Shown here piece after piece: positions 363-43,500 of a stretch of DNA of 43,864 nucleotides (its first letter is position 1; every line of letters starts with the position of its first letter). Under the pieces are notes generated by a model that had not been told where the DNA came from, did not search any database, and was given only the letters and a program-made list of their open reading frames with translations. The translations under genes and the position numbers were made by a program. The DNA lies in assembly GCF_004010195.1 (NCBI RefSeq), contig NC_057758.1:871029-914892 (forward strand), given 5' to 3'. Source of the stretch: Chiloscyllium plagiosum. Its lineage: Eukaryota.

Positions 363-433
363 ATGGAATTTTCACTCATCTTTCAGATACAACGTATTTA
401 CTATCAGTTTCTAGCTTGTCTTTGAAGTTTTTG
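363..433 (+). pseudogene. GPR139-like GPCR locus A, exon 1 (N-terminus and start of TM1), disrupted
   Basis: ATG at 363 reads MEFSLIFQIQRIYYQFLA, then an in-frame TGA at 423-425. Removing one base near 416-417 restores ...LAVFEVF-G followed by the donor GTAAGA at 434. The YY motif and the TTTTTG|GTAAG exon end match exon 1 at 24282-24462. Not in the ORF track in this frame. Confidence 0.75.
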
Positions 434-719
434 GTAAGACATCACATCCGTTTTTAATGAAGTAAAGCTGCGGGGAAAGTGCTTCTGTGTATGACAATAA
501 TTTTCTGACGAATTTGCTTTATACAGCTACTCGTAATGTCTTGTGCCTAAGTACAGTATGCTTTATTTTTTTTTCATAGAAGTGCCTCAAATTTCTTCTT
601 CTGGAGAGTTAAAATGTGGCTTTCTTGAAACAATTTCAATGTTGGTTGTAACCTGTATTCAGCTTCAATCTGACAGTGGAGAAAAATTACATTAGCATGT
701 TGTGGAGGTACGCATAACC

Positions 720-1340
720 AGCTCAGACAGTGAATTCCCGACACGCAACACCCTCTGCATATGGAAGCTTTTCCTCATGTCCTCTCTGATAAGTCTGCCA
801 CTTAACCTGAATCTTTAACCTTTGGCTGTTGAAATCTTTGCGAAGGGAACCAAGTTCTTCCTTTCCACTCTGACTCTATCTCACACAATTTTTTATACCT
901 CATCCACCAGCCTTTTCTGTTTGATGGAAATCAAAACCAGCATCTGTAATTTGTCCCCGTAGCTGCAATTTTCCATCCCAGGCAACATGCTGGCAGGTTA
1001 TATTTGCACTCTCTCCATAACCATGCATTCATCCTGCAATGTGGTGATCAGAACTGCACAGAATACTCCAGCTGCAACCCCGGCAATTGTGGCCAATCAT
1101 GTAATGTTTCAACCTCCTCTGCTTGAATGCAATTTTTATTCAGAATTAAACTTTACAGTCCAAGCAATAACCTGGCAAATCACGTTTGCACCGTCACCAA
1201 ATCAATCACATCCTTCTTCTGATTTGGATTACAGAACTGCACACCATGCTTCAGCTGTGGTCCAACTAACGTTTGACAAGGTTCCAGCTTTAGCTCCGTG
1301 CTCTCAAACTCTATCTCTCGGCTCATAGAGATCGTATTCC
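720..1340 (-). mobile_element. Old degraded CR1-like LINE 3' fragment
   Basis: Segments such as ccatcccaggcaacat and gatcagaactgcacagaatactcca resemble the reverse-strand CR1 ORF2 end seen at 2250-2360. Confidence 0.55.
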
Positions 1341-1842
1341 ATATCCGTCCGTTTCAAAATAGATGGAGTCCCTCAGGTGAATCGGTCTATTGGAAGACGG
1401 TATGCAATGAGTGCTTTAAAAGTCTGAGAATTAACTGAAAGAGCAAATACAATTGCTTCAACAATGGCAAATTAACACTTCTGACATCTTGGCAGCCAGG
1501 TACAGTATAAGTGAACAGAAGTGAAATTCACTTTTGAAATGCATTTTGATAGTGTTTATATAAGAAGAGTTTAATGGTGTTTTCGTCAAATCTAGTGTAC
1601 AACCATATTAATTGATTATATTTAGTGCTGCATTCTGGTTCCAACACAAATCACAGCAAAAAAAAACAGTGAATACAATGTCGAGTCTAAAGTTGAATAG
1701 ATGGGTTCAACTAATTTATGATCATTGGCTTGGTCAGTATTTATTTCCCATCCCTAGTTGCCTCTATGAGAAGGTTGTGGTAAGCTACCTCTTTAAACTA
1801 CTGCAGTCCATGTGCTATAGATACGCAACATTGTATTTTAGG

Positions 1843-2570
1843 TAGAACATACAGCACAGAATAGGCCCTTCGGCCCACGATGTTGTGCCGAACATTTGTC
1901 CTACCTTAAGCACCCATCCAATTGCCAAGGTTCCAGCTTTAGCTCCGTGCTCTCAAACTCTGTCATCAAAATTCTGACTCTACCACTCCCACAGGCAGCG
2001 CATTCCATGCCCCCACCACTCTCTGGGTAAAGAACCCACTCCTGACATCTCCCCTATACCTTCCACCCTTCACCTTAAATTTATGTCCCCTTGTAACGCT
2101 CTGTTGTACTCGGGGGAAAAGTTTCTGACTGTCTACTCTATCTATTTCTCTGACCATCTTATAAACCTCTATCAAGTCACCCCTCATCCTTCGCCGTTCC
2201 AACGAGAAAAGGCCTAGCACTCTCAACCTATCCTCGTACGACCTATTCTCCATTCCAGGCAACATCCTGGTAAATCTTCTCTGCACCCTCTCCAAAGCTT
2301 CCACATCTTTCCGAAAGTGAGGCGACCAGAACTGCACACAGTACACAAAATGTGGCCTGACCAAAGTCCTGTACAGTTGCAACATCACATCACGACTCTT
2401 GAATTCAATCCCTCTGCTAATGAACACTAATACACCATAGGCCTTCTTACAAGATCTATCCACCTGAGTGGCAACTTTCAAAAATCTATGAACATAGACC
2501 CCAAGATCCCTCTGCTCCTCCACCTCACTAAGAACCCTACCGTTAACCCTGTATTCCACATTCTTATTGT
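1843..2570 (-). mobile_element. CR1 LINE 3' end (ORF2 C-terminal region and 3' UTR)
   Basis: ORF 1966-2559 carries EQRDLGV, LYRTLVRPH..YCVQFWSP, LERVQRRFTRMLPG and RRMRGDLIEVYK; tagaaca tail unit at 1843. Confidence 0.95.
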
Positions 2571-2753
2571 GTTAAGTATCTGGTCAGTGTTTCTTTGTTA
2601 AACTAATTCTATCAGGTTGACTGGGGAGTTAGCATAGTTCATTAAATCATTAACATTTGTATTGACCCTAGGATAATTATAAAAAAGGAAGGCTTGGGTT
2701 TGGTATCGAAGTCCTGAACTGTGAAAAGGCTACTTTTACTATAATAACCAGGG

Positions 2754-3113
2754 TCCTGACTTTCCGCGTAAGCCTACCATGGGGAACCTTATCAAATGCC
2801 TTACTAAAATCCATGTATACTACATCCACTGCTCTACCCTCATCCACATGCTTGGTCACCTCCTCAAAGAATTCAATAAGACTTGTAAGGCAAGACCTAC
2901 CCTTCACAAATCCGTGCTGGCTGTCCCTAATCAAGCAGTGTCTTTCCAGATACTCATAAATCCTATCCCTCAGTACCCTTTCCATTACTTTGCCTCCCAC
3001 CGAAGTTAGACTAACTGGCCTGTAATTCCCGGGGTTATCCCTATTCCCTTTTTTGAACAGGGGCACAACATTCGCCACTCTCCAGTCCCCTGGTACCACC
3101 CCCGTTGACAGTG
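2754..3113 (-). mobile_element. CR1 LINE reverse transcriptase N-terminal fragment (same insertion as 1843-2570)
   Basis: VPGDWRVANVVPLFKKG, PGNYRPVSLTS, QHGFVKGRSCLT and YMDFSKAFDKVPH motifs. Confidence 0.95.
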
Positions 3114-3248
3114 AATTTTGGAAGGTAATGTCAGGAATTTGACTCGGGAACACTGACAGAATGGATGTTATATGTCTAAGTCAGAGTGGCGAGTGGCTTA
3201 GACTGGCAGAGTTTGATTTTCCTATGCATCTGCTGCCCTTTGGTTTAT

Positions 3249-3559
3249 GGGCAGCACGCTGGCACCGTGTTTACCACTCCTGCCTCACAGCGCCAGAGAC
3301 CCAGGTTCAATTCCCGCGTCAGGTGACTCTCCGTGTGGAGGTTGCACATTCTCCCCGTGTCTGCGTGGGCTTCCTCCAGGTGCTCCGGTTTCCTCCCACA
3401 ATCCAAAGAACGTGCAGGTTAGATGAATTAGTCATGCTAAATTGCCCGTAGTATTAGGTGTAGGGGAATGGGTTTGGGTGGTTTGCACTTCGGCGGGTCG
3501 GTGTGGACTTGTTGGGCCGAAGAGCCTGTTTCCACACACTGTAAGTAATCTAAATCTAA
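3249..3559 (+). mobile_element. HE1-type tRNA-derived V-SINE
   Basis: A-box-like TGGCACCGTG, B-box GGTTCAATTCC, V-domain-like GTGTGGAG..TGCACATTCTCCCCGTGTCTGCGTGG, and aatcta tail. Confidence 0.9.
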
Positions 3560-4383
3560 GATGGTGACTGAGGATCATTGATGAATTTCTGCGATACATC
3601 TTGTTGATGGTAATACAGCTGGTACAGACACTTGGTTATTGGTCTTTGAGATTCCATCGAATGCCAAGTGTCAATGCTTATATTCTGCCTTATTGGTGAT
3701 GATTATTGACTCTGCTGGCTCTTATATTTCTTGTTTCTGCATGTTATACTACAATTAATGACTTTATTTAGCTGAGATAAATGCTGCAGATTTAATTGAG
3801 GACTTCCTTTAGTATTTTATGTTAATCCTAGTTTCTTCTTTCATTGTACTCAGTGGTCTGCTGCATAAATTTTATCGGTTCCCAACTTATCTTACTCTGA
3901 ATTACGTCCACCCCCGACACTTTATTGTTATTCTCTCACTGCTGATCCCCTGTAAAAGCTCACACTCAATCTGACTCTGTCGAATTTGCTCAAAATGTGT
4001 CTTTATCTGTTCTCCTTTCATGAAAATCCCAATGGATTCATTGAAGGTGACATAAAATCTTCATGCTTCTTATCTGTAACTTATTTCATCTGATCATCTT
4101 CAAGCCACTGGTTTAATATTAAAAATAGACTTACCCCTGAAGAATATTTAACCAGAAATCCCTTAACTGTGGAAAGTGTTGTTTCTCTAAGAACTTGAAA
4201 AGAATATCTAACACACGCCTGTTCATTTATTTATTAGAGTCCCTTCACAATATAATAGAAATGATAATAATTCTATATATTTCTGCCTGAAATTTACAAT
4301 TTCACCTCTGATATTGTTGAAATGCCGAGTTGACTCCAAAGTTTATTCGATAATGAAACACTTCTCTGTTTCTCGTTTTCTAG

Positions 4384-5214
4384 TTAATATAGTTGCTTTC
4401 GTCATCCTGTTCTGAGGCGGGTGCAGTCTCTCCAAGTGTATCACTCGATATCTTTTGGGCATGGCAGAAGCTGGTCTTCCGGTCGTCATCTCTGAACAAA
4501 TGTTAAAGTGGTTTGGTCAAATTTATTTCGTGGATTCATTCCTCTCCTATACTCCCGTGTGCAGTCTCATCGCTGTCACGATTCTGCAGCTATTGAAATC
4601 TCTGTTTGGTTGACAGTTGCATTCGCTTTTGATCGTTTTGTGGCGATCTGTTGTGAGCAGTTAAAAGAAAAGCATTGGACAGAGAAAACTGCAAATCTGG
4701 TTCTTGGGGAAATAAGTGCATTGGGATACTTTGATAGTGTCCCGTGGTATTTCAGGTTTGAACCCGAGTCTGTAATTAATGATGTCCCTTGGTATTGTGT
4801 TACGAAAAAGAGCTTCTCTGCTTCTACTGGGTGGACAGCGTTTGTCCTCTTCTATGTCATTTTGACGTCATGCCTCCCATTCTTTCTAATTTTGTTTCTC
4901 AATATCCTGACCGTCAGACGAATACTGGCATCCAGTCGAATCCGCAGGAGAATCCAAGGTTTCCAAAATGGGACGCACCAAAGGTACCCAGCGGTAAAGA
5001 ATCGCAGGAAATCCGTCATTCTACTCTTCAGCATATCTGGCAGTTTTTGTTGTTATGGGTGACTCAGGTGGTATTTCACAACTACCAGCGAATTACGATG
5101 CAGTATTCTTACTCAGTCACAGTTTCTCTTTCTTTCACAGAAACTGCTGCAAATATGCTACAACTTCTCAGTTCATCCACAAATACATGCATTTATGTCA
5201 TTACCCCGAGAAAA
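4384..5214 (+). pseudogene. GPR139-like GPCR locus A, exon 2 (TM1-TM7), pseudogene; runs into gap
   Basis: Pyrimidine tract and AG at 4382-4383, then (V)NIVAFVILF*GGCSLSKCITRYLLGMAEA, TPVC, SVWLTVAFAFDRFVAICC, PWYC, NRRKSVILLFSISG and STNTCIY. Stop at 4413-4415; frameshifts near 4583 and 5047. Confidence 0.92.
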
Positions 5215-5714
5215 NNNNNNNNNNNNNNNNNNNNNNNNNNNNNNNNNNNNNNNNNNNNNNNNNNNNNNNNNNNNNNNNNNNNNNNNNNNNNNNNNNNNNN
5301 NNNNNNNNNNNNNNNNNNNNNNNNNNNNNNNNNNNNNNNNNNNNNNNNNNNNNNNNNNNNNNNNNNNNNNNNNNNNNNNNNNNNNNNNNNNNNNNNNNNN
5401 NNNNNNNNNNNNNNNNNNNNNNNNNNNNNNNNNNNNNNNNNNNNNNNNNNNNNNNNNNNNNNNNNNNNNNNNNNNNNNNNNNNNNNNNNNNNNNNNNNNN
5501 NNNNNNNNNNNNNNNNNNNNNNNNNNNNNNNNNNNNNNNNNNNNNNNNNNNNNNNNNNNNNNNNNNNNNNNNNNNNNNNNNNNNNNNNNNNNNNNNNNNN
5601 NNNNNNNNNNNNNNNNNNNNNNNNNNNNNNNNNNNNNNNNNNNNNNNNNNNNNNNNNNNNNNNNNNNNNNNNNNNNNNNNNNNNNNNNNNNNNNNNNNNN
5701 NNNNNNNNNNNNNN
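5215..5714. other. Assembly gap (500 N)
   Basis: Run of N. Confidence 1.
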
Positions 5715-6145
5715 TTAAAAGTCTGAGAATTAGCTGAAAGAGCAAATACAATTGCTTCAACAATGGCAAATTAACACTTCTGACATCTTGGGAGCCAGGT
5801 ACAGTATAACTTAACAGAAGTGAAATTCACTTTTGAAATGCATTTTGATAGTGTTTATATAATAAGAGTTTAATGGTGTTTTCGTCAAATCTAGTGTACA
5901 ACCATATTAATTGATTATATTTAGTGCTGCATTCTGGTTCCAACATAAATCACAGCAAAAAAAAAAAAACGGTGAATACAATGTAGAGTCTAAAGCTGAA
6001 TAGATGGCTTCAACTAATTTATGATCATTGGCTGGGTCAGTATTTATTTCCCGTCACTAGTTGCCTCAATGAGAAGATTATGGTAAGCTCCCTCTTTAAA
6101 CTACTGCAGTCCATGTGCTATAGATACACAACATTGTATTTTAGA

Positions 6146-7347
6146 TAGAACATAGAACAATACAGCACAGAACAGGCCCTTCGGCCAACGATGTTGTGCC
6201 GAAAATTTGTCCTAGCTTAAGCACCCATCCAATTGCCGCTTAAAGGTCACCAAAGATTCTGACTCTACCACTCCCACAGGCAGCGCATTCCATGCCACCA
6301 CCAGTCTCTGTGTGAAGAACCCACCCCTGACATCTCCCCTATACCTTCCACCCTTCACCTTAAATGTATGTCCCCTTGTAACGCTCTGTTGTACTGACTG
6401 TCTACTCTATCTATTTCTCTGATCATCTTATAAACCTCTATCAAGTCACCCCTCATCCTTCGCCGTTCCAACGAGAAAAGGCCTAGCACTCTCAACCTAT
6501 CCTCGTATGATCTAGTCTCCATTCCAGGCAACATCCTGGTAAATCTTCTCTGCACCCTCTCCAAAGCTTCCACATCTTTCCTAAAGTGAGGCGACCAGAA
6601 CTGCACACAGTACTCCAAATGTGGCCAAACCAAAGTCCTGTACAGTTGCAACATTACTTCACGACTCTTGAATTCAATCCCTCTGCTAATGAACGCTAAT
6701 ACACCATAGGCCTTCTTACAAGCTCTATCCACCTGAGGGGAAACTTTCAAAGATCCATGAACCTAGACCCCAAGATCCCTCTGTTCCTCCACCTCACTAA
6801 GAACCCTACCGTTAAGCCTGTATTCCGCATTCTTATTAGTCTTTCCAAAATGGACAACCTCACACTTGACAGGATTGAATTCCATCTGCCACTCCTCAGC
6901 CCAGCTCTGCATCATATCAAGTCCCTTTGCAGCCGACAACAGCCTTCCTCACTATCCACAACTCCACCAATCTTCGTATCATCTGCAAATTTACTGACCC
7001 ACCCTTCGACTCCCTCTTCCAAGTCATTAATAAAAATTACAAACAGCAGAGGACCCAGAACTGATCCCTGCGGAACTCCACTTGTAACTGGGCTCCAGGC
7101 GGAATATTTGCCATCTACCACTACTCTTTGACTTCGAGCGGTTAGCCAGTTCTCTATCCAACTGGCCAAATTTCCCACGATCCCATGTCTCCTGACTTTC
7201 CGCATAAGCCTTTTCCATTACTTTGCCTACCACCGAAGTAAGACTAACTGGCCTGTAATTCCCGGGGTTATCCCTATTCCCTTTTTTGAACAGGGGCACA
7301 ACATTCGCCACTCTCCAGTCCCCTGGTACCACCCCCGTTGACAGTGA
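6146..7347 (-). mobile_element. CR1 LINE 5'-truncated copy (duplicate of 1843-3113)
   Basis: ORFs 6355-6750, 6912-7205 ([20 protein letters not shown]) and 7027-7386; internal deletion near 7211. Confidence 0.95.
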
Positions 7348-7481
7348 ATTTTGGAAGGTAATGTCAGGAATTTGACTCGGGAACACTGACAGAATGGATG
7401 TTATATGTCTAAGTCAGAGTGGCGAGTGGCTTAGACCGGCAGAGTTTGATTTTCCTATGCATCTGCTGACCTTTGGTTTAT

Positions 7482-7790
7482 GGGCAGCACGGTGGCACCG
7501 TGGTTACCACTGCTGCCTCACAGCGCCAGAGACCCGGGTTCAATTCCCGCCTCAGGTGAATCTCCGTGTGGAGGTTGCACATTCTCCCCGTGTCTGCGTG
7601 GGCTTCCTCCAGGTGCTCCGGTTTCCTCCCACAATCCAAAGAAAATGCAGGTTAGATGAATTAGTCATGCTAAATTGCCCGTATTATTAGGTGTAGGGGA
7701 ATGGGTTTGTGTGGTTTGCACTTCGGCGGGTCGGTGTGGACTTGTTGGGCCGAAGAGCCTGTTTCCACACTGTAAGTAATCTAAATCTAA
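7482..7790 (+). mobile_element. HE1-type V-SINE (duplicate of 3249-3559)
   Basis: GGCAGCACGGTGGCACCGTGG A-box region, GGTTCAATTCC B-box, V-domain and aatcta tail. Confidence 0.9.
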
Positions 7791-8547
7791 AAATGGTGAC
7801 TGAGGATCATTGATGAATTTCTGCGATACATCTTGTTGATGGTGTCAATGCTTATATTCTGCCTTATTGGTGATGATTATTGACTCTGCCGGCTCTTATA
7901 TTTCTTGTTTTTGCATGTTATACTACAATTAATGACTTTATTTAGCTGAGATAAATGCTGCAGATAAAATTTTAGTATTTTATGTTAATCCTAGTTTCCT
8001 CTTTCATTGTACTCAATGGTCTGCTGCATAAATTTTATCGGTTCCCAACTTTTCTTACTCTGAATTACGTCCAGCCCCGACACTTTATTGTTATTCTCTC
8101 ACTCCTGATCCCCTGTAAAAGCTCACACTCAATCTGACTCTTTCGAATGTGCTCAAAATGATTCTTTATCTGTTCTCCTTTCATGAAAATCCCAATGGAT
8201 TCATTGAAGGTGAAATAAAATCTTCATGTTTCTTATCTGTAACTTATTTCATCTGATCATCTTCAAGCCACTGGTTTAATATTAAAACGAGACTTACCCC
8301 TGAAGAATATTTAACCATAAATCCCTTAACTGTGGAAAGTGTTGTTTCTCTAAGAACTTGAAAAGAATATCTAACACATGCCTGTTCATTTATTTATTAG
8401 AGTTCCTTCACAATATAATAGACATGATAATAATTCTGTATATTTTCTGCCTGAAATTTACAATTTCACCTCTGATATTGTTGAAATGCCGAGGTGACTC
8501 CAAAGTTTATTCGATAATGAAACTCTTCTCTGTTTCTCGTTTTCTAG

Positions 8548-9445
8548 TTAATATAGTTGCTTTCGTCATCCTGTTCTGAGGCGGGTGCAGTCTCTCCAAG
8601 TGTATCACTCGATATCTTTTGGGCATGGCAGAAGCTGACCTTCCGGTCGTCATCTCTGAACAAATTTTAAAGTGGTTTGGTCAAATTTATTTCGTGGATT
8701 CATTCCTCTCCTATACTCCCGTGTGCAGTCTCATCGCTGTCACGATTCTGCAGCTACTGAAATCTCTGTTTGGTTCACAGTTGCATTCGCTTTTGATCGT
8801 TTTGTGGCGATCTGTTGTGAGCAGTTAAAAGAAATGCATTGTACAGAGAAAACTGCAACTCTGGTTCTGGGGGAAATAAGTGCATTGGGATACTTTGATA
8901 GTGTCCCGTGGTATTTCAGGTTTGAACCCGAGTCTGTAATTAATGATGTCCCTTGGTATTGTGTTACGAAAAAGAGCTTCTATGCTTCTACTGGGTGGAC
9001 AGCGTTTGTCCTCTTCTATGTCATTTTGACGTCATGCCTCCCACTCTTTCTGATTTTGTTTCTCAATATCCTGACCGTCAATATCCTGCCTGGCATCCAG
9101 TCGAATCCGCAGGAGAATCCGAGATTTCCAAAATGGGACGCACCAAAAGTACCCAGCGGTAAAGAATCGAAGGAAATCCGTCATTCTACTCTTCAGCATA
9201 TCTGGCAGTTTTTGTTGTTATGGGTGACTCAGGTGGTATTTCACAACTACCAGCGAATTACGATGCAGTATTCTTACTCAGTCACAGTTTCTCTTTCTTT
9301 CACAGAAACTGCTGCAAATATGCTGCAACTTCTCAGTTAATCCACAAATACATGCATTTATGTCATAACACAGAGAAAATTTAGAGAGGAGCTGAAAAAT
9401 GCAAATAAGTATCAACTTGCAATTATTGTGAAATTAATTAAATAA
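8548..9445 (+). pseudogene. GPR139-like GPCR exon 2, duplicate copy, pseudogene
   Basis: Acceptor AG at 8546-8547. Shared TGA at 8577-8579 and shared frameshifts with the first copy, plus a private frameshift near 9080 and TAA at 9338-9340. C-terminus TCIYVITQRKFREELKNANKYQLAIIVKLIK ends at stop 9443-9445. Confidence 0.92.
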
Positions 9446-17735: not shown

Positions 17736-17739
17736 CTAA

Positions 17740-20240: not shown

Positions 20241-20244
20241 TAGG

Positions 20245-24281: not shown

Positions 24282-24462
24282 ATGGAATCCAACCTTTGGA
24301 CAGCAGACTGGTGTTCAACAAAGATGAACAGGCGATTCCCCTCACAAATCGCCTATTACATTAAAAATCAGCATTGGATGACAGTCTACTATCGAATAAG
24401 ATACATACTCCTGCTCTTCCAGCACGTTTACTATCCCTTACTTGCTGCGGTTGGTGTTTTTG
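24282..24462 (+). CDS. GPR139-like GPCR locus B, coding exon 1
   Basis: GCAATGG start context; 60 codons plus 1 nt ending HVYYPLLAAVGVF-G, followed by the consensus donor GTAAGT at 24463. YY-x6-G spacing matches TM1 of GPR139-family receptors. Confidence 0.85.
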
Positions 24463-27325: not shown

Positions 27326-27344
27326 AATCCTGAGGCAGGGTGCA

Positions 27345-27890: not shown

Positions 27891-28109
27891 AGCAGTCAAA
27901 TGCAGGTTCAGTAAATAAATATATCACTCTATGTGGTCAGGAAGTCCATGGAGTTAATGCACTTCCCCTCAAACATGAGTCCTTCCTCCCAACCTGCTCT
28001 ATGGTTTCCCTGGTATGTTCTGTTCTTCAAAGTCGACTTTGAGTTTGGAGGTTTTTCCCACTGGAACTGAACTCTCTCAGAGCAGTCAACGGGCTTCTCG
28101 CAAAAGCAA

Positions 28110-30330: not shown

Positions 30331-30532
30331 NNNNNNNNNNNNNNNNNNNNNNNNNNNNNNNNNNNNNNNNNNNNNNNNNNNNNNNNNNNNNNNNNNNNNN
30401 NNNNNNNNNNNNNNNNNNNNNNNNNNNNNNNNNNNNNNNNNNNNNNNNNNNNNNNNNNNNNNNNNNNNNNNNNNNNNNNNNNNNNNNNNNNNNNNNNNNN
30501 NNNNNNNNNNNNNNNNNNNNNNNNNNNNNNNN

Positions 30533-31326
30533 TGAGGCACATTCCAATTGTTTATTTGTCAAAATTTCTTTTTGTGAAGTTCATTCCGGTGTGCAACATC
30601 CATGCCATTCTTGTCTATGCAGCTACGGACTCTTCTGTCTGGTTCACTGTCGCTTTCACCTTCGATCGATTTCTGGCCATCTGTTGTCACAAACTGAAAC
30701 ACAAATATTGTAACGAGAAAATTGCATCAGTCGTTTTGGGAACAGTCACAGTACTCAGCTGTTTAAAGAATATTTTCTGGTATTTCATGTTAACAAGTCA
30801 GTATCGGCTAAAGAATAATCCTTGGTTTTGTGAGTTAAGATCGGGTCTTAAATTCTCTAAATTTTGGGGCACAGTTGAAATCACTCATCATCTTCTAAAT
30901 CCGTGGTTGCCAATTCTTTTGACAGTGTTGTTTAATGCTTTATGTATCAGACAAATTCTAGTTGCCAACAGAACCCGTAGGAGACTCCAGACACTCAGCA
31001 AGGGAAAGACTGTCACAGATCCAAAAATAGAGAATCGAAAGAAATCCATAATTTTACTGTTTCTCATCTCGGCCAATTTCTTACTGGCATGGGCAGTCAT
31101 TATGGTTTATTCAATTTGTTACGGGGCGAGGTTATTAGGACAGAAGGTGATATTTCTCCATTATTTTGTTCGGGAAATTGGATACATCTGCCAGCTCACC
31201 AGTTGCTGCACAAATATTTGTATTTATGCTGTGGCATTAACCAAGTTCAGGGATCAGATATATGATGTACTCAAATATCCAATTACTATCTCACGAACAT
31301 TATTTAATGAAAGAAAAAATAGTTAA
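30533..31326 (+). CDS. GPR139-like GPCR locus B, coding exon 2 (5' end hidden in gap 30331-30532)
   Basis: Uninterrupted frame: RHIP, IPVC, DSSVWFTVAFTFDRFLAICC (TM3), NPWFC (ECL2), LLNPWLP (TM5), ENRKKSIILLFLISANFLLAW (TM6), CCTNICIY (TM7), KFRDQI (helix 8); stop at 31324-31326. Confidence 0.93.
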
Positions 31327-32394: not shown

Positions 32395-32468
32395 GACCTA
32401 AAATGGTAATCAATCACTTACAGGGGGTAAAGACCTAAAATGGTAATCAATCACTTACAGGGGGTAAA
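32395..32468 (+). repeat. Perfect 37-bp tandem duplication
   Basis: gacctaaaatggtaatcaatcacttacagggggtaaa at 32395-32431 and 32432-32468. Confidence 0.97.
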
Positions 32469-32469
32469 A

Positions 32470-32900
32470 AAGACAGAGAGACAGATTGACATACAAACAG
32501 AGACAGCGAGCGAGGGAATTAGAAAGTGAAAGATAGACAGTTAGAAAGAGTGAGGGTAACTGACAGAGAGAGATAGACCGAGAGGGAGACAGAGATGGAG
32601 AAAGAAAAATCAACGAAGCATGACAGATAAAGAGAGTGTGGAAGTGAAAGAGAGTCAGAGAGCGAAAATGTGAGAGAGAAATATAAAGCTGAATGTACGC
32701 AAAGAGAGTGAGAATAGACAGATGAGAAATTTAGTGCACTATGACATAACCAGAGAGAAGCACAGAGACAAATAGAGATATACAGTCACACAGGGAGAGG
32801 TAATAGTGCTCACAAAGAGTGTGAGAAGAACTGAGAGAGCAAAACGTAGAGGGATGATTTAGAAGAGAGCGTCAGAGACAGAAAGAGCATAAGACAGATA
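32470..32900. repeat. GA-rich low-complexity tract
   Basis: Degenerate (GA)n/GACA repeats. Confidence 0.75.
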
Positions 32901-33356
32901 GCTAGCTGTAACAATGTTGGGTCTGTGCTACAGGCCTCCCATCAGCGAGCTTGATATTTATACCAATAATGGAAAGATGTGTGAGCAACAGGGTGGTGTT
33001 GATAGGAAAGTTTAAATTTTCAGACGTTGACTGGGATTCGCTTAAAGTTTAAGGTATAGATAAAGAAAAATGTGTAAGGAGAAAGCAGGAAGGTTATCTT
33101 GCGCAGTATGTAAATAATCCAGGAAGGGGTTATGCTGGGTATGGTGTTGGGGAATAAGCCAGGCCAGGTGATCGAGGTTTCAGAAATGGATTACTTTGGG
33201 AATAGTGATCCGAATTCCGTAAGGTTTAGAGTGCAAAGACGAGAGTGGTCCTAAATGAAGAATGTTTGTTAAGAAAAGAACAACTGTAGCAAAGTTCCGC
33301 ATGAACTCTGAACTGTGAATGGAATCAGCGGTTTGAGGGTAAATTCACAATTGATA

Positions 33357-33667
33357 AGATTAGATTAGATTACATTACATTACAGTGTGGAAACAGGCCC
33401 TTCGGCCCAACAAGTCCACACCGACTCACCGAAGCGCAACCCACCCATTCCCCTACATTTAGCCCTTTACCTAACCCTATTTAGCATGGCCAATTCACCT
33501 GACCTGAACATCTTTGGACTGTGGGAGGAAACCTGAGCACCCGGAGGGCACCCACGCAGACACGGGGAGAATGTACAAACTCCACACAGTCAGTCGCCTG
33601 AGTTGGGAATTGAACCCGGGTCTTTGGCGCTGTGAGGCAGCACTGCTAACCACTTTGCCACCGTGCC
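33357..33667 (-). mobile_element. HE1-type V-SINE nested in CR1
   Basis: Near-complete reverse copy with (ttaga)n tail, V-domain, and A and B boxes. Confidence 0.92.
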
Positions 33668-33964
33668 GTGCGAGGCTTGGAAAGAATGTTTGATCAGAGT
33701 TTATGACTGACATGTTCCAGTGAAATGAGGGTGAGAAATGGCACGACTGGGAACCATGGATATCAGTTGAAATTGTGAGACGAGATGAGAGGACAAATGA
33801 AGCATCCATAAAGAACAGGCGACTAAAAACAGATGAAGATTTGGAAGAAGGGCTAATCTGAAACGAGGAATTAAGTAGGTTGAAAGGTATCATGTAATAG
33901 TTTTTAGAAGATAGGATTAAGGGAAATCTCAAAGCCTTTTATTCGTATATAATAACAAGGGGGT

Positions 33965-34206
33965 AACATAGAACATAGAACATAGAACAATACAGCACAG
34001 AACAGGCCCTTCGGCCCACGATGTTGTGCCGAACTTCTAACCTAGATTAAGTACCCATCCATGTACCTATCCAAATGCCGCTTAAAGGTCGCCAATGATT
34101 CCGACTCTACCACTCCCACGGGCAGCGCATTCCATGCCCCCACCACTCTCTGGGTAAAGAACCCACCCCTGACATCTCCCCTATACCTTCCACCCTTCAC
34201 CTTAAA
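33965..34206 (-). mobile_element. Short young CR1 3' end nested antisense in older CR1
   Basis: (aacatag)n tail and 3' UTR nearly the same as 6146-6363. Confidence 0.92.
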
Positions 34207-35601
34207 ACGGGAGAAGGGGTTTGCCCATTAAAGGATAAAGGAGGAAATTTATGTGCACTCAGAGAAATTGTGTGGGACTTTTAATGAGTATGTTGCATCA
34301 ACATTCACCGAGGGGAGGGACATAATGGATGTTGAGGCTTGGGATAGATGTTTGATTACTCGAGGTCAAGTCTGCGTAAGGAGGGAGGAAATGTTGTGTA
34401 TTGATAAAGGCATTAAGGTGAACCAGTCCCCAGGTATAGATGGGATCAATGCCAGGTTGCTGACGGAAGCGAGAGAGGAAATAGCCGGGACCTTAAAATA
34501 TATCTTTGCAGCATTTCGAACACAGTTGAGATCACGGAAGATTGGAGAATAGTGAAAACTGACCCCTTGTTTCGACAGACAGCAGCGATAATCCAGGCAA
34601 TTTTAGACCAGTGAGCCTAACATCTGTTGGAGAAGATGTTGAAGGATCCAATTGATTTACATTTAGAAGAAAACGGGCTTAACAGTAATCGACAACAGGG
34701 TTTTGTGTCATCAAGGTCATATCCTTCGAACTTAATAATAGTACGCTTTGACAAAGTGGATCGTTGAGGGAATTGCTGCAGATTTCACATAAATGTACTT
34801 CAATAAGACATTAGAATTGGGTGCCCATGGTCGGCTGATAGAGAAAGTTATGTCACATTGGGTCCAGATTCTAAGAGCGTGATCGATAGAGACCTGAATT
34901 GGCAGCAGGAGGCAAAAAGTTGTCGTAGAAGGGAGTGTTTAAAATGGAGAATTTTGACAGAGGCGATCCACAGGGATCCGTATTGGGAGGAGGGTCTAGT
35001 TGGTCTGATTAGAAAGTTTGCTTATGTAATTCATACAGATGCAGTAGGAGATAGTGAAGGGGTCTATCAGAGAATGCAGCAGAATATAGATATCTCAGTG
35101 TTGGGCAGAGAAATGGCAGGTAGAGATCCATTCTGGCAATAACGAGGTGATGCATCTTGGAAGATCGAATTCAAGAGCCAAATGTATGCTAAATGGAAAT
35201 GTCCTAGGAAAAAATTGATCTGCAGAGAGATCTGGGTGTTCAGGTCCGTTATACCTTGAAGGTGCCAACGAAAGTGGTCAAGAAGCCATATAGGGCATCC
35301 TTGCCTTCATCGGATCGGGTATTGAGTACAAGGGGTGGCAGTCATGTTATAGTTGTAGAGGAATTTGGTTCGGCCGCATTTGGAATAGTGCGCACAAATC
35401 TGGTCGCCACATTGCGAAAAGGTTGGGGATGCTTTGGAAAGGGTGCAGAGGAGGTTCCCCAGGATATTGCCTGGTACGGAGGGTGCTAGCTATTAAGATA
35501 GTTTGAGTAGGTTAGGAATACATTCATTAGAAAGGGGAAGGTTCGGTCTACCTGATTGAGGTCGACAAAGTCAAGAGAGGTACAGAGTGAGTGATTANNN
35601 N

Positions 35602-38600
35602 TGTGGAGCATCTACGATGCTGAGGAGGTCGTGGATAGCACGTTTAGTGAACTGGTCACACCGCAGATTAGAATTACTGAGGGAAACAGTGAATGGGTGA
35701 CCAAAAGGCAGAGAAAGAGTAGGAAGGCAGTGCAGGTATCCCCTGTGGTCATCTCCCTCCAAGACAGGTATACCGTTTTGGATACCATTGGGGGAGATGA
35801 CTCACCAGGAGAGGGCAGCAGTTGCCAAGATCGTGGCACTGTGCAGGCACTACTGTTCAGAAGGGAGGGAAAAAGACTCGTAGGGCCATAGTCATAGGGA
35901 ATTCTATTGTAAGGGGAGGAGATAGGCGGTTCTGTGGCAGAAAACGAGACTCTCGGCATTGTAAGTTGCCTGCAAGGTGCTCGGGTCAGGGATGTCATCG
36001 ATTGGCTATAGAGCATTCTAAAAGGGAAGAATGAACAGATAGTTGATTGTTGCATATCGGCCCTATCGATGTAAGTAAAATAAAAACGAGATGAGGACCT
36101 GAAAGCAGAATTCAGGAATATAGGAGAGAACTTAAAAAAAGAGGATATCAAATGTAGTGATCTCGGGATTACTAACAGTGTCACGTACTAGCCAGCGTTG
36201 AAATGAAAGAATAGGCAGGATGAACACGTGGCTTGAGGAATGGTGTAGGAGGGAGGGATTCAAACTTGTTGGACATTGGGACGGTGCTGGGGAAGGTGGG
36301 ACTATTACAAATTGGAAGGCCTACACCTGAACAAGACTGGAACCTATATCCTTGGGGGAGGTTTTCCCACTGTTGTTGGGGAGATTTTAAACTAATGTGT
36401 CAGAGGGCTGGGAAACAGAAGAGAAGACATGTAGACAGCGAGGTGGAAACTGGAGAATGCAAGGATCATGAATTTAGCATAAATAAGCTGAAAAGTAGGC
36501 AGAGCACAGATGAATGCAAAAGAACTAGTTGCCTGAAGTGCATATATTTTAATGCAAGGAGTATAGTGTGTAAGGCAGATGAACGTAGAGCTTGGATTGG
36601 TGCCTGGGAGTATGACATTATTGCAGTGACAGGGATTTTTTGAAGGAAAGACATGATTGGCAACTAAATGTTCCAGGATATAGACACTTCAGACAGGACA
36701 GGGAGGAGGGGGGAGGAGTTGCTTTGCTGGTCATGGATGATATCATGGCTGTGCGAAAGGTGGACATATTGGAGGGCTTGCGTAGTGAGGCATTATGGGT
36801 GGAGCTGAAAAATAAGGGTGCAGTTACATTGTTAGGGCTGTATTACAGGCCTCCCAACGGTGAGTGTGAGATAGGAGAACAAATAGGTAAACAGATTGTG
36901 GAAAGATAGAGAGGGAGCAAGGTGGTGGTGATGGGAGATCTTAATTTCCCAAATTGCCGAGGATACACTTAGTGGCAGAGATCCGGATGGGACAGAAATT
37001 TTAAGAAGGGTCCAGGATTGGAAGTGGCCATATTGGATCTGGTGTTGGGGAATGAGCCAGGCCAGGTGGTAGAAGTTGCGATGGGGGATTTCTTTTGGAA
37101 CAGTGACCACAATTTTGTAAGTTTTAGAATCCTTGTAGAAAAAGATGAGAGTGGTCCTAAGGAAAGAGGACTGAACTGGGTCAAGGCCAATTATATCAAA
37201 ATTAGGCAGGAGCTGGGAAATGTGGATTGGACACAGATATTTGAAGGTAAGTCCACATTTGATACGTGGGATGCTTTCACAGATAGGTTCACAATAGAGC
37301 AGATTGGCATGTCATATTGAAAGCAAAGGATAGGAAAGTAAGGATTCGTGAACTGTGGATGACAGCAGAAATCGTCCAATTAGCCAAGAGGAAAAGGGAA
37401 GTGTGCATAAGGTTCAGGCAGCTCAGAACAGAACGGGCCCTGGGGGAATGTCTGGACAGTAGGACCAGTCTTAAACGAAGAATCAAGCGGGCTAAAAGGG
37501 GTCAGGAAATAACTTTGGCAAGCAGAATTAAGGAGAATACCAAAGTAGTTTATTCTTATATAAGAAGCAAACCGGTAAATAAAGAAAGGATTAGTCCACT
37601 GAAGGAAGAGGGAGGAAGGCTGTATTTGAACCTGAGAAAATAGGTGAGATTCTGAATGATTAATTTGTATCAGTGTTCACTGAGGAGAGAACATGATGAA
37701 TGCTGAAATTTGAGATGCAAGTTTGATTTCTCTGGAACACGTTGACATTGGTTGGCAAAATGTGTTGGGTAGGCTAGAGGATATTAAGGTGGACAAATCC
37801 TCAGGACTGGATTGGAAGTATCCCATGTTGCTGAAGGAGGCGGGAGAAGATATCTTTGCCGCACCTTAAACGCAGGTGAGGTGCTGGAGGACTGGATGCC
37901 GGCTCACGTTGTCCCCCTGCACAAGAAGGGTAATAGTGATATTCCGGGTAACTACAGACCAGTGAGCCTGATGTCAGTGGTGGGTAAATTGCTGGAGGAA
38001 GTACTGAGGGATAAAGTCTATTTATATTTGGAATGTAATATGAGGAACGGCTGAGGATACTGGGATTGTATTCGTTGGAGTTTAGAAGATTAAGGGGAGA
38101 CTTAATAGAGACGTACAAAATAATACATGGCTTGGAAAAGGTAGATGCTAGGAAATTGTTTCAGTTAAACGAGGAGACTAGGACCCGTGGACACAGCCTT
38201 AGAATTAGAGGGGGTCATTTCAGAACAGAAATGCGGAGACATTTCTTCAGCCAGAGAGTGGTGGGCCTGTGGAATTCATTGCCACGGAGTGCAGTGGAAG
38301 CCGGGACGCTAAATGTCTTCAAGGCCGAGATTGATAGATTCTTGTTGTCTCGAGGAATTAAGGGCTACGGGGAGAACGCTGGTAAGTGGAGCTGAAATGC
38401 GCATCAGCCATGATTGAATGGCGGAGTGGACTCGATGGGCCGAATGGCCTTACTTCCACTGCTATGTCTTATGGTCTTATGGTAATGAGCTTATCAGTGA
38501 TAGGCAACATAGTTTTGTGCGGGGGAGATCGTGCCTTCCCAACTTGAAGGAGTTATTTGAGGAAGTGATCACGTTGATGGATGAAGGAAGGGCTGTAGAT

Positions 38601-38735
38601 TTCATGCAAATGGACTTGAGTAAGGCGTTTGATAAGGATCTCCATGTTAAACTAATGGAGACATTGAAGACACATTGTGTGCAGGGTGTTCTTGCCAGGT
38701 GGATAAGGAACTGATTGAGCAACAGGAGTGAAATA
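35602..38735 (+). mobile_element. Long decayed CR1 LINE (ORF1 esterase, APE endonuclease, RT N-terminus)
   Basis: AIVIGNSIVRG (SGNH GDS motif, decayed), LKCIYFNARSI..YDIIAVT, GGGVAL, YYRPP, LDLVL, SDHN, PGNYRPVSL and MDLSKAFDK. Confidence 0.92.
38040..38481 (+). mobile_element. Young CR1 3' fragment nested in CR1
   Basis: Open frame 38066-38395 (RRLRGDLIETYK, TRGHS, FFSQRVVGLWN); (tcttatgg)n tail; GTAAT at 38035-38039 and 38482-38486 as candidate target-site duplication. Confidence 0.92.
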
Positions 38736-39300
38736 TTCAATAACGAGAGGTCACGCTATCAAGGTGAGAAGTGAAACATTTGAGGAGAATACACGCGGCA
38801 AGTACTTCACATAGAGGGTGCCAGAAGAGGTAATAGAGGTAGGCACGGCAGATTCATTGAAGATGCGTCTGGACAGATGCATGAGTAGGTGGGGAGCAGA
38901 GGGAGATAGATGATTATGAATTGGCTGCCAGATTTAGACAGTGTATTTGGATCGGCACAAGCTTGGAGACCTGAATGGCCTGCTCCTGGGCTGTAATTTT
39001 TCTTTATTCATTGTTTAGTATTTGTCGGATGACTTAGGGTCACGATTCCAAGATGGGAAGGGAAAAGCTTTGAGGAGATATGTGTGGCAAGTTTTTTACT
39101 GAGATGGGGTCCTTGGAACGTGTTGCCAGTGGAGATGGTAGAGGAAGGCATGATGTCGTCAATTAAGATATATCCAGACAGATAAATGAATATGCCAGGA
39201 GCAGTGGAGCACAGTTCCTAAGAAAATTAGAGAGAGGTTAAGGTAGAAGATCTGGATCGGCGGAGTTTCGAGGGCAGAAGAGCCTGTTCTTGTGTTAGAA
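38735..39300 (+). mobile_element. Two further CR1 3' fragments
   Basis: 38735-39015 is homologous to 25524-25820; 39030-39300 is an older similar tail. Confidence 0.7.
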
Positions 39301-39319
39301 CTTTCCTTGTAATGTTTTA

Positions 39320-41006
39320 CCCTTGAGAGCAAAAAGACAAAAAAGGAAAGAGAAGCAGTGAGACTGAGATGGAGAGACAGAGAGTGAGAGAGACACATGC
39401 AGGAATTGTGAGTGATCGTGACCTAGAGGGAGACAGAGGAAAGAAAGTGAGGATGTCAGAGAGAACAAGTGAGGAAGATATAGAGAAAGATAGACAGAGA
39501 AAAACGCAAAGGTAGAGAGAGAGAGAGAGGAGAGAAAGAGAAATAGANNNNNNNNNNNNNNNNNNNNNNNNNNNNNNNNNNNNNNNNNNNNNNNNNNNNN
39601 NNNNNNNNNNNNNNNNNNNNNNNNNNNNNNNNNNNNNNNNNNNNNNNNNNNNNNNNNNNNNNNNNNNNNNNNNNNNNNNNNNNNNNNNNNNNNNNNNNNN
39701 NNNNNNNNNNNNNNNNNNNNNNNNNNNNNNNNNNNNNNNNNNNNNNNNNNNNNNNNNNNNNNNNNNNNNNNNNNNNNNNNNNNNNNNNNNNNNNNNNNNN
39801 NNNNNNNNNNNNNNNNNNNNNNNNNNNNNNNNNNNNNNNNNNNNNNNNNNNNNNNNNNNNNNNNNNNNNNNNNNNNNNNNNNNNNNNNNNNNNNNNNNNN
39901 NNNNNNNNNNNNNNNNNNNNNNNNNNNNNNNNNNNNNNNNNNNNNNNNNNNNNNNNNNNNNNNNNNNNNNNNNNNNNNNNNNNNNNNNNNNNNNNNNNNN
40001 NNNNNNNNNNNNNNNNNNNNNNNNNNNNNNNNNNNNNNNNNNNNNNNNNNNNNNNNNNNNNNNNNNNNNNNNNNNNNNNNNNNNNNNNNNNNNNNNNNNN
40101 NNNNNNNNNNNNNNNNNNNNNNNNNNNNNNNNNNNNNNNNNNNNNNNNNNNNNNNNNNNNNNNNNNNNNNNNNNNNNNNNNNNNNNNNNNNNNNNNNNNN
40201 NNNNNNNNNNNNNNNNNNNNNNNNNNNNNNNNNNNNNNNNNNNNNNNNNNNNNNNNNNNNNNNNNNNNNNNNNNNNNNNNNNNNNNNNNNNNNNNNNNNN
40301 NNNNNNNNNNNNNNNNNNNNNNNNNNNNNNNNNNNNNNNNNNNNNNNNNNNNNNNNNNNNNNNNNNNNNNNNNNNNNNNNNNNNNNNNNNNNNNNNNNNN
40401 NNNNNNNNNNNNNNAGAAAGTGTGGAGAGAGACAGAGAGAGTGTGAGTGGGACGGAGGAAGGGACAACACCGAGAGACAAATAGAGCAAAAAAAAAGAGA
40501 GCGGAAGAGAGAGCAGGAGAGACAGAGAAAGACAGCGAGAAAATTAGAGAGAGACATCACAATAAATGTAGAGACAAAGAGACAGAGAGCGGGAGAGGGA
40601 GAAAGATAGAGAGACATATCAAACAAGGGATGAACGTAGAAAGAATGGGAATACGAAGCAAGGAGTGAAAGGTAACAGGGGTTATGGAAAGTGAGAAGAG
40701 AGAAACATAGCGAGACACGCAACAAGATAGAGATGAAGATGGACAAAGTGAGTGGACTAGGAGTGAGACAACAGAGAGATACAGAAATAGAGAAAGAGGG
40801 AAAAAGAGCGAAAAGCAGATATGGACGCAGAGATAAAGATACGGGAAAGCAGAGAGACGCAGTACAGACAGCCAGAATAACAGGTAGAAAGCGCGATATG
40901 GAGAAGCAGTGAGACTGACACAGAGAAAAACCAAGACAGAAAAAAGCACGCAAATAAAAACAGAGAAAAAGACAGAACGAGGGACAGATTGAGAGAGAGA
41001 GACGCT

Positions 41007-41050
<44 letters not shown>
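39320..41050. repeat. GA-rich low-complexity region with (GA)n microsatellite, spanning gap 39548-40414
   Basis: Direct reading. Confidence 0.9.
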
Positions 41051-41553
41051 CTGTTATCTACTATTTTACTCATTATTAATGACAACAAATTGTTTATAGT
41101 TCTGTAAATAAAAATCACAGTCTGCAATAAATAAGCAAATGTATCTACAAGTCTCCTGAACCTGTTCGCAGGCACCCATGCATTTGATTTTCGAGATACG
41201 TTATGTTGTTGTGAACAACACGTGATCCAAACTTTACTCAAAGGTTGGGCATCCATCGCTTCAAAATCTCTTTGCATTGGGAACTACAACTCTTTTATTT
41301 ATCATTTCAATTAATCCTGTAATTGTGTCTATGGCGAAGTGATACGATCAAAGAAGACTCAGCTTATGTTAAATATATCAATCAGGATGGCTTATTGTTT
41401 GTCTTTGCGGTGCTAAAGTTGATTCATTCATGATAAATTGTTTGTGACGATGTTTTATTACTATCGAATATTCATAATGCTTGGTGAGGAAGTATGAGAG
41501 AATTATTAAATCATTGAATATTTTAATTTCACCATGTTGCAAATCCAGTGATA

Positions 41554-41691
41554 ATGAATCGGATTTACCTTGACTTATTGTCCCTGAGTGGGAACACTTT
41601 TAGATGACTACCTCTGGAGTATCGTGATATGGACATTTTAGGTCGGGAATTCGATTAAACGTTTATTCATTTGCGGAAAGTTCTGTCAACA
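41554..41691 (+). pseudogene. Candidate decayed exon 1 of GPR139-like locus C
   Basis: MNRIYLDLLSLSGNTFR*LPLEYR aligns without gaps to MNRRFPSQIAYYIKNQHWMTVYYR of locus B (stop at the Trp position, YR conserved); GTAAGT at 41692. Confidence 0.5.
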
Positions 41692-41743
41692 GTAAGTCAT
41701 GAATACACTGATAGTAAACCCACGTCCAGGCAGATATGCTTTG

Positions 41744-42004
41744 TTAGAATCATAGAATACTTCCACTGTTGAAGCAGACCATTTGGATCATTGAGTCGAC
41801 ACACCGACCATCTGGAGTTCATCCCCATCACACACACCTTCCTACCCTATCTCTACAACCTTGCCTTTTCAATAAATAATCAAAATAAAAGCCTGCACAT
41901 CGTTGGATAATGCAGAGCAATATTGGCGTGGTCAATGTACCCATCCTGCACATCAATGGACTGTGGGAGCTAACCTGAGCACCCGGGGGGAACCCACACA
42001 GACA
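41744..42004 (-). mobile_element. Degenerate HE1-related SINE
   Basis: ggactgtgggag..aacctgagcacccgggggaacccacacagaca resembles the V-domain; tagaatca tail. Confidence 0.65.
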
Positions 42005-42789
42005 AATCCAAGAAGTTTGGATTATTCCTTCTATTTTCTGTCTCTTGCTGTCTTTCCCAGTATTGCAAACATGTTCTGTTCTGGTGCCTGATCCCATATC
42101 AATTTGCACGTAATTCAGAATAAAACGCAAGACCACAGAAATAAGCCGTTTATATGCCGTTTCAATGCAGGAGACCATTGCAGATCGGATCTTTACACTT
42201 ACATTTCTTTGCAATTGAGTTCAGAAGCACAAACATTCATAAGCTGAACATACATGATTCGGCTAGCTACTGTATTGAAATTTTCTGCTGTTCCGCATTC
42301 AGTTACAGATCTTCATAGCTAATGACACCACGGCGTTGAGCAGCTCAAAATCTAACTAAAGCCCCGTCGCCATTAAACCTTCCAATCACGACCATCTCTG
42401 TTTTAAGATTCTCTTTGATGTGATTGCGTCTAGTGATGACATTTGCCATCCAATTATTTATATTAATAAGACATCAGGGCAGAATAAATCCGTTCAGCCC
42501 ACTGGGTCTTCTCTACCATTCAGTGAGACTGTGATTGATCTGATCATTGTAAACTCCACTAGCCCGCCATTTCCCCATAGGCCTTGATTCATTTCCTGAT
42601 CAAAGCAGTGTCTATCTTGAGATTGAATATACTTGGCAACTAAACCTTCATGCACACTTGTCATGAAATACCATTTTACTCAGATCTGGATGCAAAAACA
42701 CATCTGAAAATCTTAACAATTTCTCAACAACATCTATTACTTTACACAGTCTGATGTGTAATGTCAAAGCGTATTTCTGTTGCCCACGG

Positions 42790-43500
42790 TTAGTTTAATA
42801 ATGGTTTGTTTTTTTGTTTCACAATAAATCTTGTCTCTCAAAGTGCGTCATTTGTTATCTGATGCCAATGGCAGCCACGGATCAACTGATCATTGTCCTC
42901 AAACTGTTTATGGGACACGTTGTAATTTTTTATCGTTTGGCTGGTAACACATTTATTTAATCAAGTTCCTCCCAGTGTTTTACATTAATACTGCCCTGCT
43001 TTATGCAGTCACTGACTGCATTATGTGTTTCAACATCACCTTCACATTTATTTGATTTTTGGCCATTCGTTACACGAAGCTGAAATGTCAATATTGCAGT
43101 GAACAAACAGTGGCTTCGTCTCTGGGAACACTAGTTTCCTTGAACTGTTAAAGCAACATTCGCTGGCATTTTATGTTAATGGATTGCGATCGGTTGCAGA
43201 ATCTCCCGTGCTTTTGTAAATTAGCATTCATCACCATTGACTCTCCATTCTGAGACACAATCAACCTCTTCCACCACATTCTAAATATATTCGCCCATTC
43301 TTCCTGATTCTGCTGCCCAAGCATTCACTGTGAGGCAAATTTTAGAGACTAATTGAGCCCGCAGCAGATTGTTGTCTCAAAGCTATGGGTAGAGGGCCAG
43401 GAACACAGAGTTTCAGAATCGAAGGAAAACGATATGTTTGCTGTTGTGATCTCAGCCAATTTCATGTTTCTTTTTTGAGTCATAGAGTACATGGTACTGT
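42790..43500 (+). pseudogene. GPR139-like GPCR locus C, exon 2, heavily decayed and truncated in TM6
   Basis: CLSKCVICYLMPMAATDQLIIVL, LLYAVTDCIMCFNITFTFI*FLAI, KLKCQYCSEQTVASSLGT, NIRWHFML and VISANFM align to locus B. Multiple stops and frameshifts; expected acceptor reads GG at 42788-42789. Confidence 0.88.

Follow-up and report, generated by a model that had tools for sequence, protein, structure and literature searches.

Two described systems frame the genes discussed here. GPR139 and GPR142 are class A orphan receptors activated by L-Trp and L-Phe; they have been placed with the protostome FMRFamide, myosuppressin, proctolin and MIP receptors (PMC8514136), and a survey of their relatives recognised three non-mammalian lineages beside them in coelacanth, gar and fishes, GPR210A and GPR210B being named as non-mammalian sister sets (Rinne et al., 2019; PMC6504862). 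The nematode srw receptors have been proposed, speculatively by their authors, as sensors of environmental peptides (PMC2576165). Here we analyse a window of 43,864 bases of repeat-rich DNA from Chiloscyllium plagiosum (NC_057758.1, positions 871,029 to 914,892, forward strand), which holds four copies of the second exon (exon 2) of rhodopsin-like G protein-coupled receptors (GPCRs) at three loci, A, B and C. The window is an ordinary stretch of a cluster and its value lies in the family, a large set of chondrichthyan paralogues that, judging by where their sequences vary, has a probability of about one half of being a chemosensory repertoire in sensory epithelium.

Placement and extent of the receptor family

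The four exon-2 copies, located by tblastn and frameshift-aware alignment, are all on the forward strand, two at locus A (A1 and A2) and one each at loci B and C (Table 1), as the first-pass annotation had described them. That annotation was also right that a single copy, B, is without visible lesions. The lesion-free stretch is 30535-31323, and the start of B exon 2 lies inside a gap of Ns; the other three of the four bear lesions. Both B exon 2 (38.5 bits) and the A1 piece (43.4 bits) lie above the 30.5-bit cut-off of the Pfam family 7tm_1, and loci A and B are split at an identical position in transmembrane helix 1 (TM1), and we assign the loci to the class A (rhodopsin-like) GPCRs.

A search with B exon 2 retrieved 786 proteins at E ≤ 1e-5 among 1329 candidates; the best 120 of these 786 matches comprise 116 named from sharks (including 49 from horn shark, 25 from whale shark and 16 from sevengill) and four unnamed. 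A profile built from 22 family proteins matched 132 clusters at the 50% identity level (E ≤ 1e-30), some of which are fragments or fused models. When 30 of the 150 listed cluster representatives were looked up, all 22 high-scoring ones proved to come from sharks, rays or a chimaera, and the eight from the tail comprised a salamander (165 bits), a coelacanth (160), teleosts (145 and 97), amphioxus (102 and 92), a snail (91) and an unnamed sequence (108). The database models P0053, P0057, P0132, P0199 and P0266 fuse family members to transposon or unrelated neighbour genes, and annotation-based counts are unreliable because several models are such fusions. At the level of DNA, contigs at least 90% alike number about 24,000 at the TM3 motif versus 9-36 at B-specific stretches in run X1, and 8,800 versus 3-6 in run X4, a pile-up several hundred to a thousand times deeper that is in keeping with many genomic copies and is no copy number, as overlapping contigs inflate it. 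We read the family as hundreds of paralogues with birth-and-death turnover, dead copies standing beside open ones, and the large repertoire under such turnover that had been proposed from the window alone agrees with both the 786 matches and the three dead copies out of four.

For phylogenetic trees, 110 rows were collected and 38 ids listed for removal (multi-stretch, partial or redundant), leaving 72, of which 44 entered a careful mixture-model tree. In the 44-row tree, whose root rests on one long branch and which, like the quick tree, was built without true GPR139 and GPR142, the chondrichthyan radiation and a salamander gene form one clade (98/97), a coelacanth-type gene and an anchovy gene form a second (95/90), and the amphioxus genes are separate. 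A chimaera gene nests inside the radiation, and the diversification is therefore older than the split between chimaeras and sharks. B falls in a tight subfamily (subfamily B, 100/100), where its branch is long and the closest relatives among the matches listed share 55-63% identity with it, and locus A groups in the quick tree, from partial sequence, with another subfamily that includes horn shark and devil ray genes (89). Many deep subfamilies are common to sharks, rays and a chimaera. The epithet "shark-specific", given to the array at first, does not hold: the radiation takes in rays and a chimaera, and the salamander gene either belongs to it or stands next to it as sister.

Bony vertebrates are represented in the expansion clade, as far as seen, by the salamander gene alone (P0235, P0271, P0274; Pleurodeles, Ambystoma, Lissotriton), in which Ser1.50 and Asn2.50 replace the usual residues (helix positions were numbered from anchor motifs by alignment, not from structure). 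The coelacanth-type gene (P0236 group) has orthologues in sharks, sturgeon, teleosts, amphibians, turtles and squamates, with 46-66% identity and roughly a single copy in each species, and the 120 matches listed include none named from a mammal or bird. Its Arg6.51, Thr6.54 and Gln6.55 are invariant, its profile matches human GPR139 at 96 bits, and two of its models are fused with TMEM183A names, which suggests TMEM183A as a neighbour. The coelacanth-type single-copy gene, the anchovy gene and the salamander gene make three bony-vertebrate lineages, likewise three in number as in the GPR210 survey, and may be the GPR210A/B lineages; the taxon pattern fits, with no Ensembl ids matched. The available text of that survey contains no chondrichthyan ("shark" has 0 occurrences) and reports no expansion (PMC6504862).

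On the family profile, human GPR139 scores 54 bits (E 1e-13), the best among solved structures (next 1e-9) and far under the non-mammalian relatives (97-165 bits). With B alone as query, GPR139 was not matched at E ≤ 1 among solved structures, and a search with an amphioxus relative, aimed at true orthologues of GPR139, yielded 10 proteins without a vertebrate name among them. An AlphaFold model of B exon 2 was weak (predicted local distance difference test 63, predicted template modelling score 0.43) and gave nothing at E ≤ 0.001 in Foldseek, where GPR139 ranked first without significance (E 0.033); it was not used as evidence. The Atlas neighbours of the family agree with a placement among FMRFamide, myosuppressin, proctolin and MIP receptors. 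By these comparisons, the family is a chondrichthyan-expanded set of class A GPCRs of the wider GPR139/142 - FMRFamide/myosuppressin receptor branch and is apparently not the GPR139 orthologue, grouping as it does with the salamander gene and scoring GPR139 at 54 bits against 160 for the coelacanth-type gene. The initial label "GPR139/GPR142-like" stands insofar as GPR139 is the closest human relative of solved structure, and falls where it would imply orthology.

Variation in the binding pocket and the extracellular lid

We compared 120 subfamily-B proteins, picked by likeness to B, and 34 full-length deep representatives of the wider family with 120 single-copy (coelacanth-type) orthologues as a control, using a pocket list of 31 positions that joins a generic class A set to positions from the GPR139 papers; p-values from rank tests were not taken at face value because the rows are related. 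In both family sets the class A anchors Asn1.50, Asp2.50, Arg3.50, Pro5.50 and Tyr7.53 are present at 93-100%, and Pro6.50 and Pro7.50 are mostly substituted. Mean entropy in the wider family is 2.52 bits at the 31 pocket positions versus 1.10 in the inner helix halves, compared with 0.78 versus 0.85 in the control, and the ratio of outer to inner entropy is 1.9 in both family sets versus 1.18 in the control. For pairs matched for inner-helix identity (0.55-0.65), the 254 paralogue pairs are identical at 0.25 of pocket, 0.36 of other outer-helix and 0.61 of inner-helix positions, and the 1284 control pairs at 0.64, 0.51 and 0.63, respectively. The pocket is thus more variable than other outer-helix positions in the paralogues, and the reverse is true in the control. 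The conserved inner and variable outer face reported from the window is thereby upheld across the family, for which the reading as a ligand-diversified repertoire is well supported by this pattern of substitution.

Within subfamily B, the pocket is not the variable part and the lid varies instead. Asp2.57, Arg2.61, His3.28, Asp3.37, Glu5.39, His5.42 and Glu7.36 are fixed in the deep pocket, and all 16 sites above 2.7 bits lie in extracellular loop 1 (ECL1), ECL2 or the top of TM6-ECL3-TM7. Neighbouring lid sites lie 2 to 4 positions from one another, a spacing that matches a single face of a helix or strand, and 25% of the residues at these sites are Tyr, Trp or Phe, the commonest residues being Arg, Tyr, Trp, Leu, Asp, Gln and Glu. 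A fixed polar pocket under a variable lid would fit ligands with a common anchor and variable side chains, as in peptides.

The residue that anchors amino acids in GPR139 has been lost. Activation of GPR139 needs Phe3x33, His5x43, Trp6x48 and Asn7x38 (PMC5430874). A positively charged residue at 6x51, reportedly confined within class A to GPR139 and GPR142, is also required and holds Trp or Phe in docking, Arg6.51 being called critical for ligand recognition (PMC8807744). Arg6.51 is present in 119 of the 120 single-copy orthologues and in the anchovy and amphioxus genes, with Lys in salamanders, which ties the whole group to GPR139/142. Within the expansion it is found in 0 of 120 subfamily-B proteins (Ile in B itself) and in 1 of 34 wider members, which show 15 different residues there; its absence indicates that the expansion left the ancestral binding mode, and the aromatic amino-acid ligands that had been carried over from GPR139/142 do not transfer. 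At the four activation positions, mapped by profile alignment, B has Tyr, His, Trp and Tyr, that is, two identical residues, one similar and one lost.

A candidate chemosensory role and its rivals

As a chemosensory repertoire, the members of the family would bind different ligands and would all signal via one shared transducer, probably of Gq/11 type as in GPR139; trpc2, abundant in catshark olfactory tissue (PMC11979771), would suit such a route. The repertoire would serve to detect molecules that reach the animal from outside, in the water or by ingestion, probably peptides or derivatives of amino acids, at a chemosensory epithelium, be it in sensory cells of the nose, skin, gill, mouth or gut. 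An external origin of the ligands is probable because the pockets of endogenous systems stay fixed, like that of the control gene. In subfamily B, a common anchor group would be held in the fixed polar deep pocket and the variable side chains would be read by the 16 lid positions. More tentatively, and with somewhat less confidence than in a sensory role as such, cartilaginous fishes could have in this family their largest set of chemoreceptors, one without kinship to the six families known from vertebrates and drawn separately from the branch in which nematode srw also arose, with subfamily B reading peptides through a fixed anchor and an antibody-like variable lid.

Several points weigh against a sensory role. 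Variable pockets show ligand diversity, not a sensory site, and immune GPCR families vary in the same way. The deep pocket of subfamily B is as conserved as that of the control (0.68 versus 0.78 bits), and the G-protein step is drawn by analogy. Expression data are sparse: five RNA reads, at 90-95% identity and from paralogues, were found in 13 million read (about 2% of one single-cell run, tissue unlabelled), B itself had 0 reads, a second single-cell run gave 0 reads, and no RNA run is listed as holding B. The 50 most nose-specific catshark genes include no GPCR (PMC11979771), a weak objection, as V2Rs were missed too.

The main rival is innate immune or barrier surveillance, with the receptors acting as leukocyte or epithelial sentinels for microbial or parasite peptides, like FPR or MRGPR. 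The hypervariable lid of subfamily B, in which Arg, Tyr, Trp, Asp and Glu abound and beneath which the deep pocket is fixed, and the fast turnover would suit such a use, and cartilaginous fishes are reported to be without MAS1 and its relatives (PMC8455134), which may have left the niche open. We nevertheless consider it unlikely, given that the known relatives are neural or nutrient receptors; the supplement of a nurse shark spleen paper (PMC10529500, 4,750 characters) also has no GPR139/142 label, though this is almost no test. Internal or reproductive sensing, in which gut endocrine cells, gonad or sperm would read nutrients or self peptides, draws on the response of GPR139 and GPR142 to amino acids or their action in glucose metabolism, and on the frequent expression of catshark OR and V2R genes in testis, stomach or rectal gland (PMC11979771). 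It appears improbable, however, as hundreds of receptors with non-orthologous pockets far exceed what endogenous ligand systems use, and in the same species the relative of endogenous type has stayed at one copy, its pocket fixed.

A largely neutral build-up of copies, arising through segmental duplication in a repeat-rich setting and few of them functional, would account for the single open copy among the four exon-2 copies here, for the codon differences between A1 and A2 (6 synonymous and 14 non-synonymous, close to neutral), and for the long branch of B and the change at its conserved Trp5.35 in one run. It sits poorly with hundreds of open, annotated proteins, with inner motifs that are near-invariant across subfamilies older than the chimaera-shark split, and with variation concentrated at the pocket beyond the neighbouring lipid-facing positions, and we hold it to be quite improbable for the family. 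We give hardly any credence to the idea that the family consists of amplified GPR139/GPR142-type receptors for Trp and Phe: although GPR139 is the best solved-structure match of the profile, His5.42 and Trp6.48 are retained and 3.33 is aromatic in subfamily B, Arg6.51 is missing from every one of the 120 subfamily-B proteins and from 33 of the 34 wider members, Asn7.38/39 has become Phe or Tyr in subfamily B, and the acidic TM3 residues are not retained.

Loci of the window and comparison with known chemoreceptor systems

The receptor exons, gaps and duplicated block of the window are collected in Table 1. Exon 1 of locus B carries a W..YR segment and is followed by a phase-1 GT donor at 24463. 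The stretch missing from B exon 2 is 41 residues long in all 65 measurable homologues, and one contig of DNA run X4 extends 75 letters into the 202-N gap, as read from coordinates. Downstream of the gap the frame is free of stops and frameshifts up to the stop codon at 31324-31326; two public DNA runs list zero indels in the visible coding part, 12 of 12 listed indel rows falling in the 3' flank, and nine variant codons, of which four are synonymous and five non-synonymous, one at Trp5.35. B exon 2 is probably intact, and only probably because its first 41 codons fall in the gap. A Trp-Asn-containing glycosylation-type motif occurs 0-4 times before TM1 in subfamily B, at least once in 40 of 64 measurable homologues, and B retains an extra copy of it upstream of its first ATG (24243-24297), which suggests that an upstream start was lost.

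Table 1. Receptor exons, assembly gaps and duplicated block in the window.
Feature	Position	Strand	Basis
Locus A exon 1, short N-terminus	363..433 (71 bases)	+	weak exon-1 hidden Markov model (HMM) match, 3.1 bits
Duplicated block, two copies	1416-5214 / 5715-9379 (~3.8 kb)	+	DNA comparison within the window
Locus A exon 2 copy 1 (A1, pseudogene)	4384..5214	+	55% identity to horn shark P0140
500-N assembly gap, exactly between both block copies	5215..5714		sequence
Locus A exon 2 copy 2 (A2, pseudogene, without own exon 1)	8548..9445	+	frameshift-aware alignment
Locus B exon 1, 60 codons, long N-terminus to mid-TM1	24282..24462	+	homologue exon-1 HMM, 53.5 and 58 bits
202-N gap, expected splice acceptor and first 41 codons of B exon 2	30331..30532		homologue alignment
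Locus B exon 2, visible part, TM2 to stop	30533..31326	+	open frame
Locus C exon 2 remnant (pseudogene)	~42790..43478	+	tblastn, frameshift-aware alignment

At locus A, exon 1 has a premature TGA at 423-425 and a GT donor at 434, and is one base longer than the family's phase-1 junction. A1 has a stop at 4413 and frameshifts near 4579 and 5049, and is truncated in TM7 by the 500-N gap; A2 has stops at 8577 and 9338 and frameshifts near 8743, 9089 and 9214, carrying A1's stop and both of its frameshifts plus one further stop and frameshift. The first copy of the duplicated block ends on the last base before the gap and the second begins on the first base after it; they differ by about 2-5% substitutions in most 200-base bins and by several indels, and one reverse-transcriptase element is deleted complementarily in them (2569-2975 versus 6838-7208). 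Contigs of other DNA runs are 0-4% different from the B region, with indels, a range that overlaps the distance between A1 and A2. On balance we favour an assembly overlap, that is, an uncollapsed second haplotype, as the source of the duplication. A2 is either a duplicate of an already dead gene or such a haplotype, with no evidence of a new gene, because it is without exon 1 and shares A1's stop and two frameshifts.

Locus C bears five stops and four frameshifts, and its homology ends in TM6, where unrelated repeat-like sequence starts. Its exon 1 was not found by tblastn, HMM, DNA alignment or frameshift alignment, all at chance-level scores: the exon-1 HMM reached at best -2.3 bits in 31400-42790 (versus 53.5 on B and 3.1 on A), and the search upstream of C scored 30-35, against 25-39 in the shuffle control. 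This exon could lie inside the 867-N gap at 39548-40414. Of the two N-terminal types first described, the short one of A and the long one of B with W..YR are recovered, and the long N-terminus attributed to C is unsupported because of the HMM result.

The window has four N gaps in all (500, 202, 4 and 867 bases), and an Rfam scan of it gave no match. Upstream of B, the stretch 19000-24400 has no 26-base satellite array; at locus A the window reaches only 362 bases upstream. Remnants of LINE-like (long interspersed element) reverse transcriptases, presumably of CR1/L2 type, lie at 1969-3180, 6253-7413, 13200-13870, 25095-25824, 34000-39014 and 43479-43864; RVT_1 was confirmed by Pfam for two pieces, and one remnant begins where locus C ends. 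A SINE-like (short interspersed element) repeat of about 300 bases is present in six copies on both strands, at 73-85% identity (3254-3559, 7487-7793, 18680-18977, 27031-27343, 33356-33666 and 41923-42004). An inverted repeat (17023-17174 and 18134-18285; 152 bases, 96% complementary, 959 bases apart), possibly a local inversion, lies in a degraded block (17663-18612) that is 69% like 20295-21275 and whose translations, without a Pfam match, we take to resemble integrase remnants of long terminal repeat retrotransposons. On the reverse strand, the translation of a GC-rich stretch (28089-29278), likewise without a Pfam match, presumably resembles the end of a Penelope-type element.

Sharks and rays have been described as poor in olfactory receptors and in GPCRs, which is odd beside their chemical acuity: the catshark has only about 65 known chemoreceptor genes (PMC6368271, table 1), and, according to the whale shark paper, cartilaginous fishes have comparatively few GPCRs (PMC8455134). 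The family offers a tangible candidate for this missing repertoire or, failing that, for an unknown innate recognition system, and, should it be the largest chemoreceptor family of these animals, it would overturn the view of sharks smelling with only a few dozen receptors. It is held in RefSeq under the borrowed name "probable GPR139", and its expansion is apparently undescribed. No description came up in searches of the open-licence literature, subscription journals being outside this scope; GPR139 is not mentioned in the main text of the catshark sensory genome paper (PMC11979771), nor in the supplements of PMC8455134 (24 files, with one GPR142 orthogroup label), PMC7677710 (3 files) and PMC10529500 (1 small file). 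New here are the matched control for the pocket, the finding that Arg6.51 is lost, the contrast between lid and pocket in subfamily B, and the relatives among bony vertebrates.

Compared with GPR139, the source of its RefSeq label, the family has Trp6.48 and His5.42 in common through subfamily B, and differs from it in being without Arg6.51 and Asn7.38, in numbering hundreds of paralogues, and in the presence of Cys3.25, of which the printed alignment shows none in GPR139. With the OR, TAAR, V1R/ORA, V2R, T1R and T2R families it shares clustering, pseudogenes, a variable pocket and a conserved cytoplasmic face; unlike them, it matches only 7tm_1 in Pfam (and, weakly, Srx), and no OR or TAAR is among its 13 structure matches. 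Nematode srw is likewise a clustered birth-and-death expansion from the myosuppressin/FMRFamide receptor branch with one conserved disulfide (PMC2576165), and the Srw Pfam domain is found in 16% of the proteins in the nearest Atlas cluster. The chondrichthyan expansion is nonetheless independent, with a match to PF10324 in 0 of 4 proteins scanned (two of the family and two relatives), and by analogy srw would be a precedent, from the same peptide-receptor branch, for the sensory reading proposed here.

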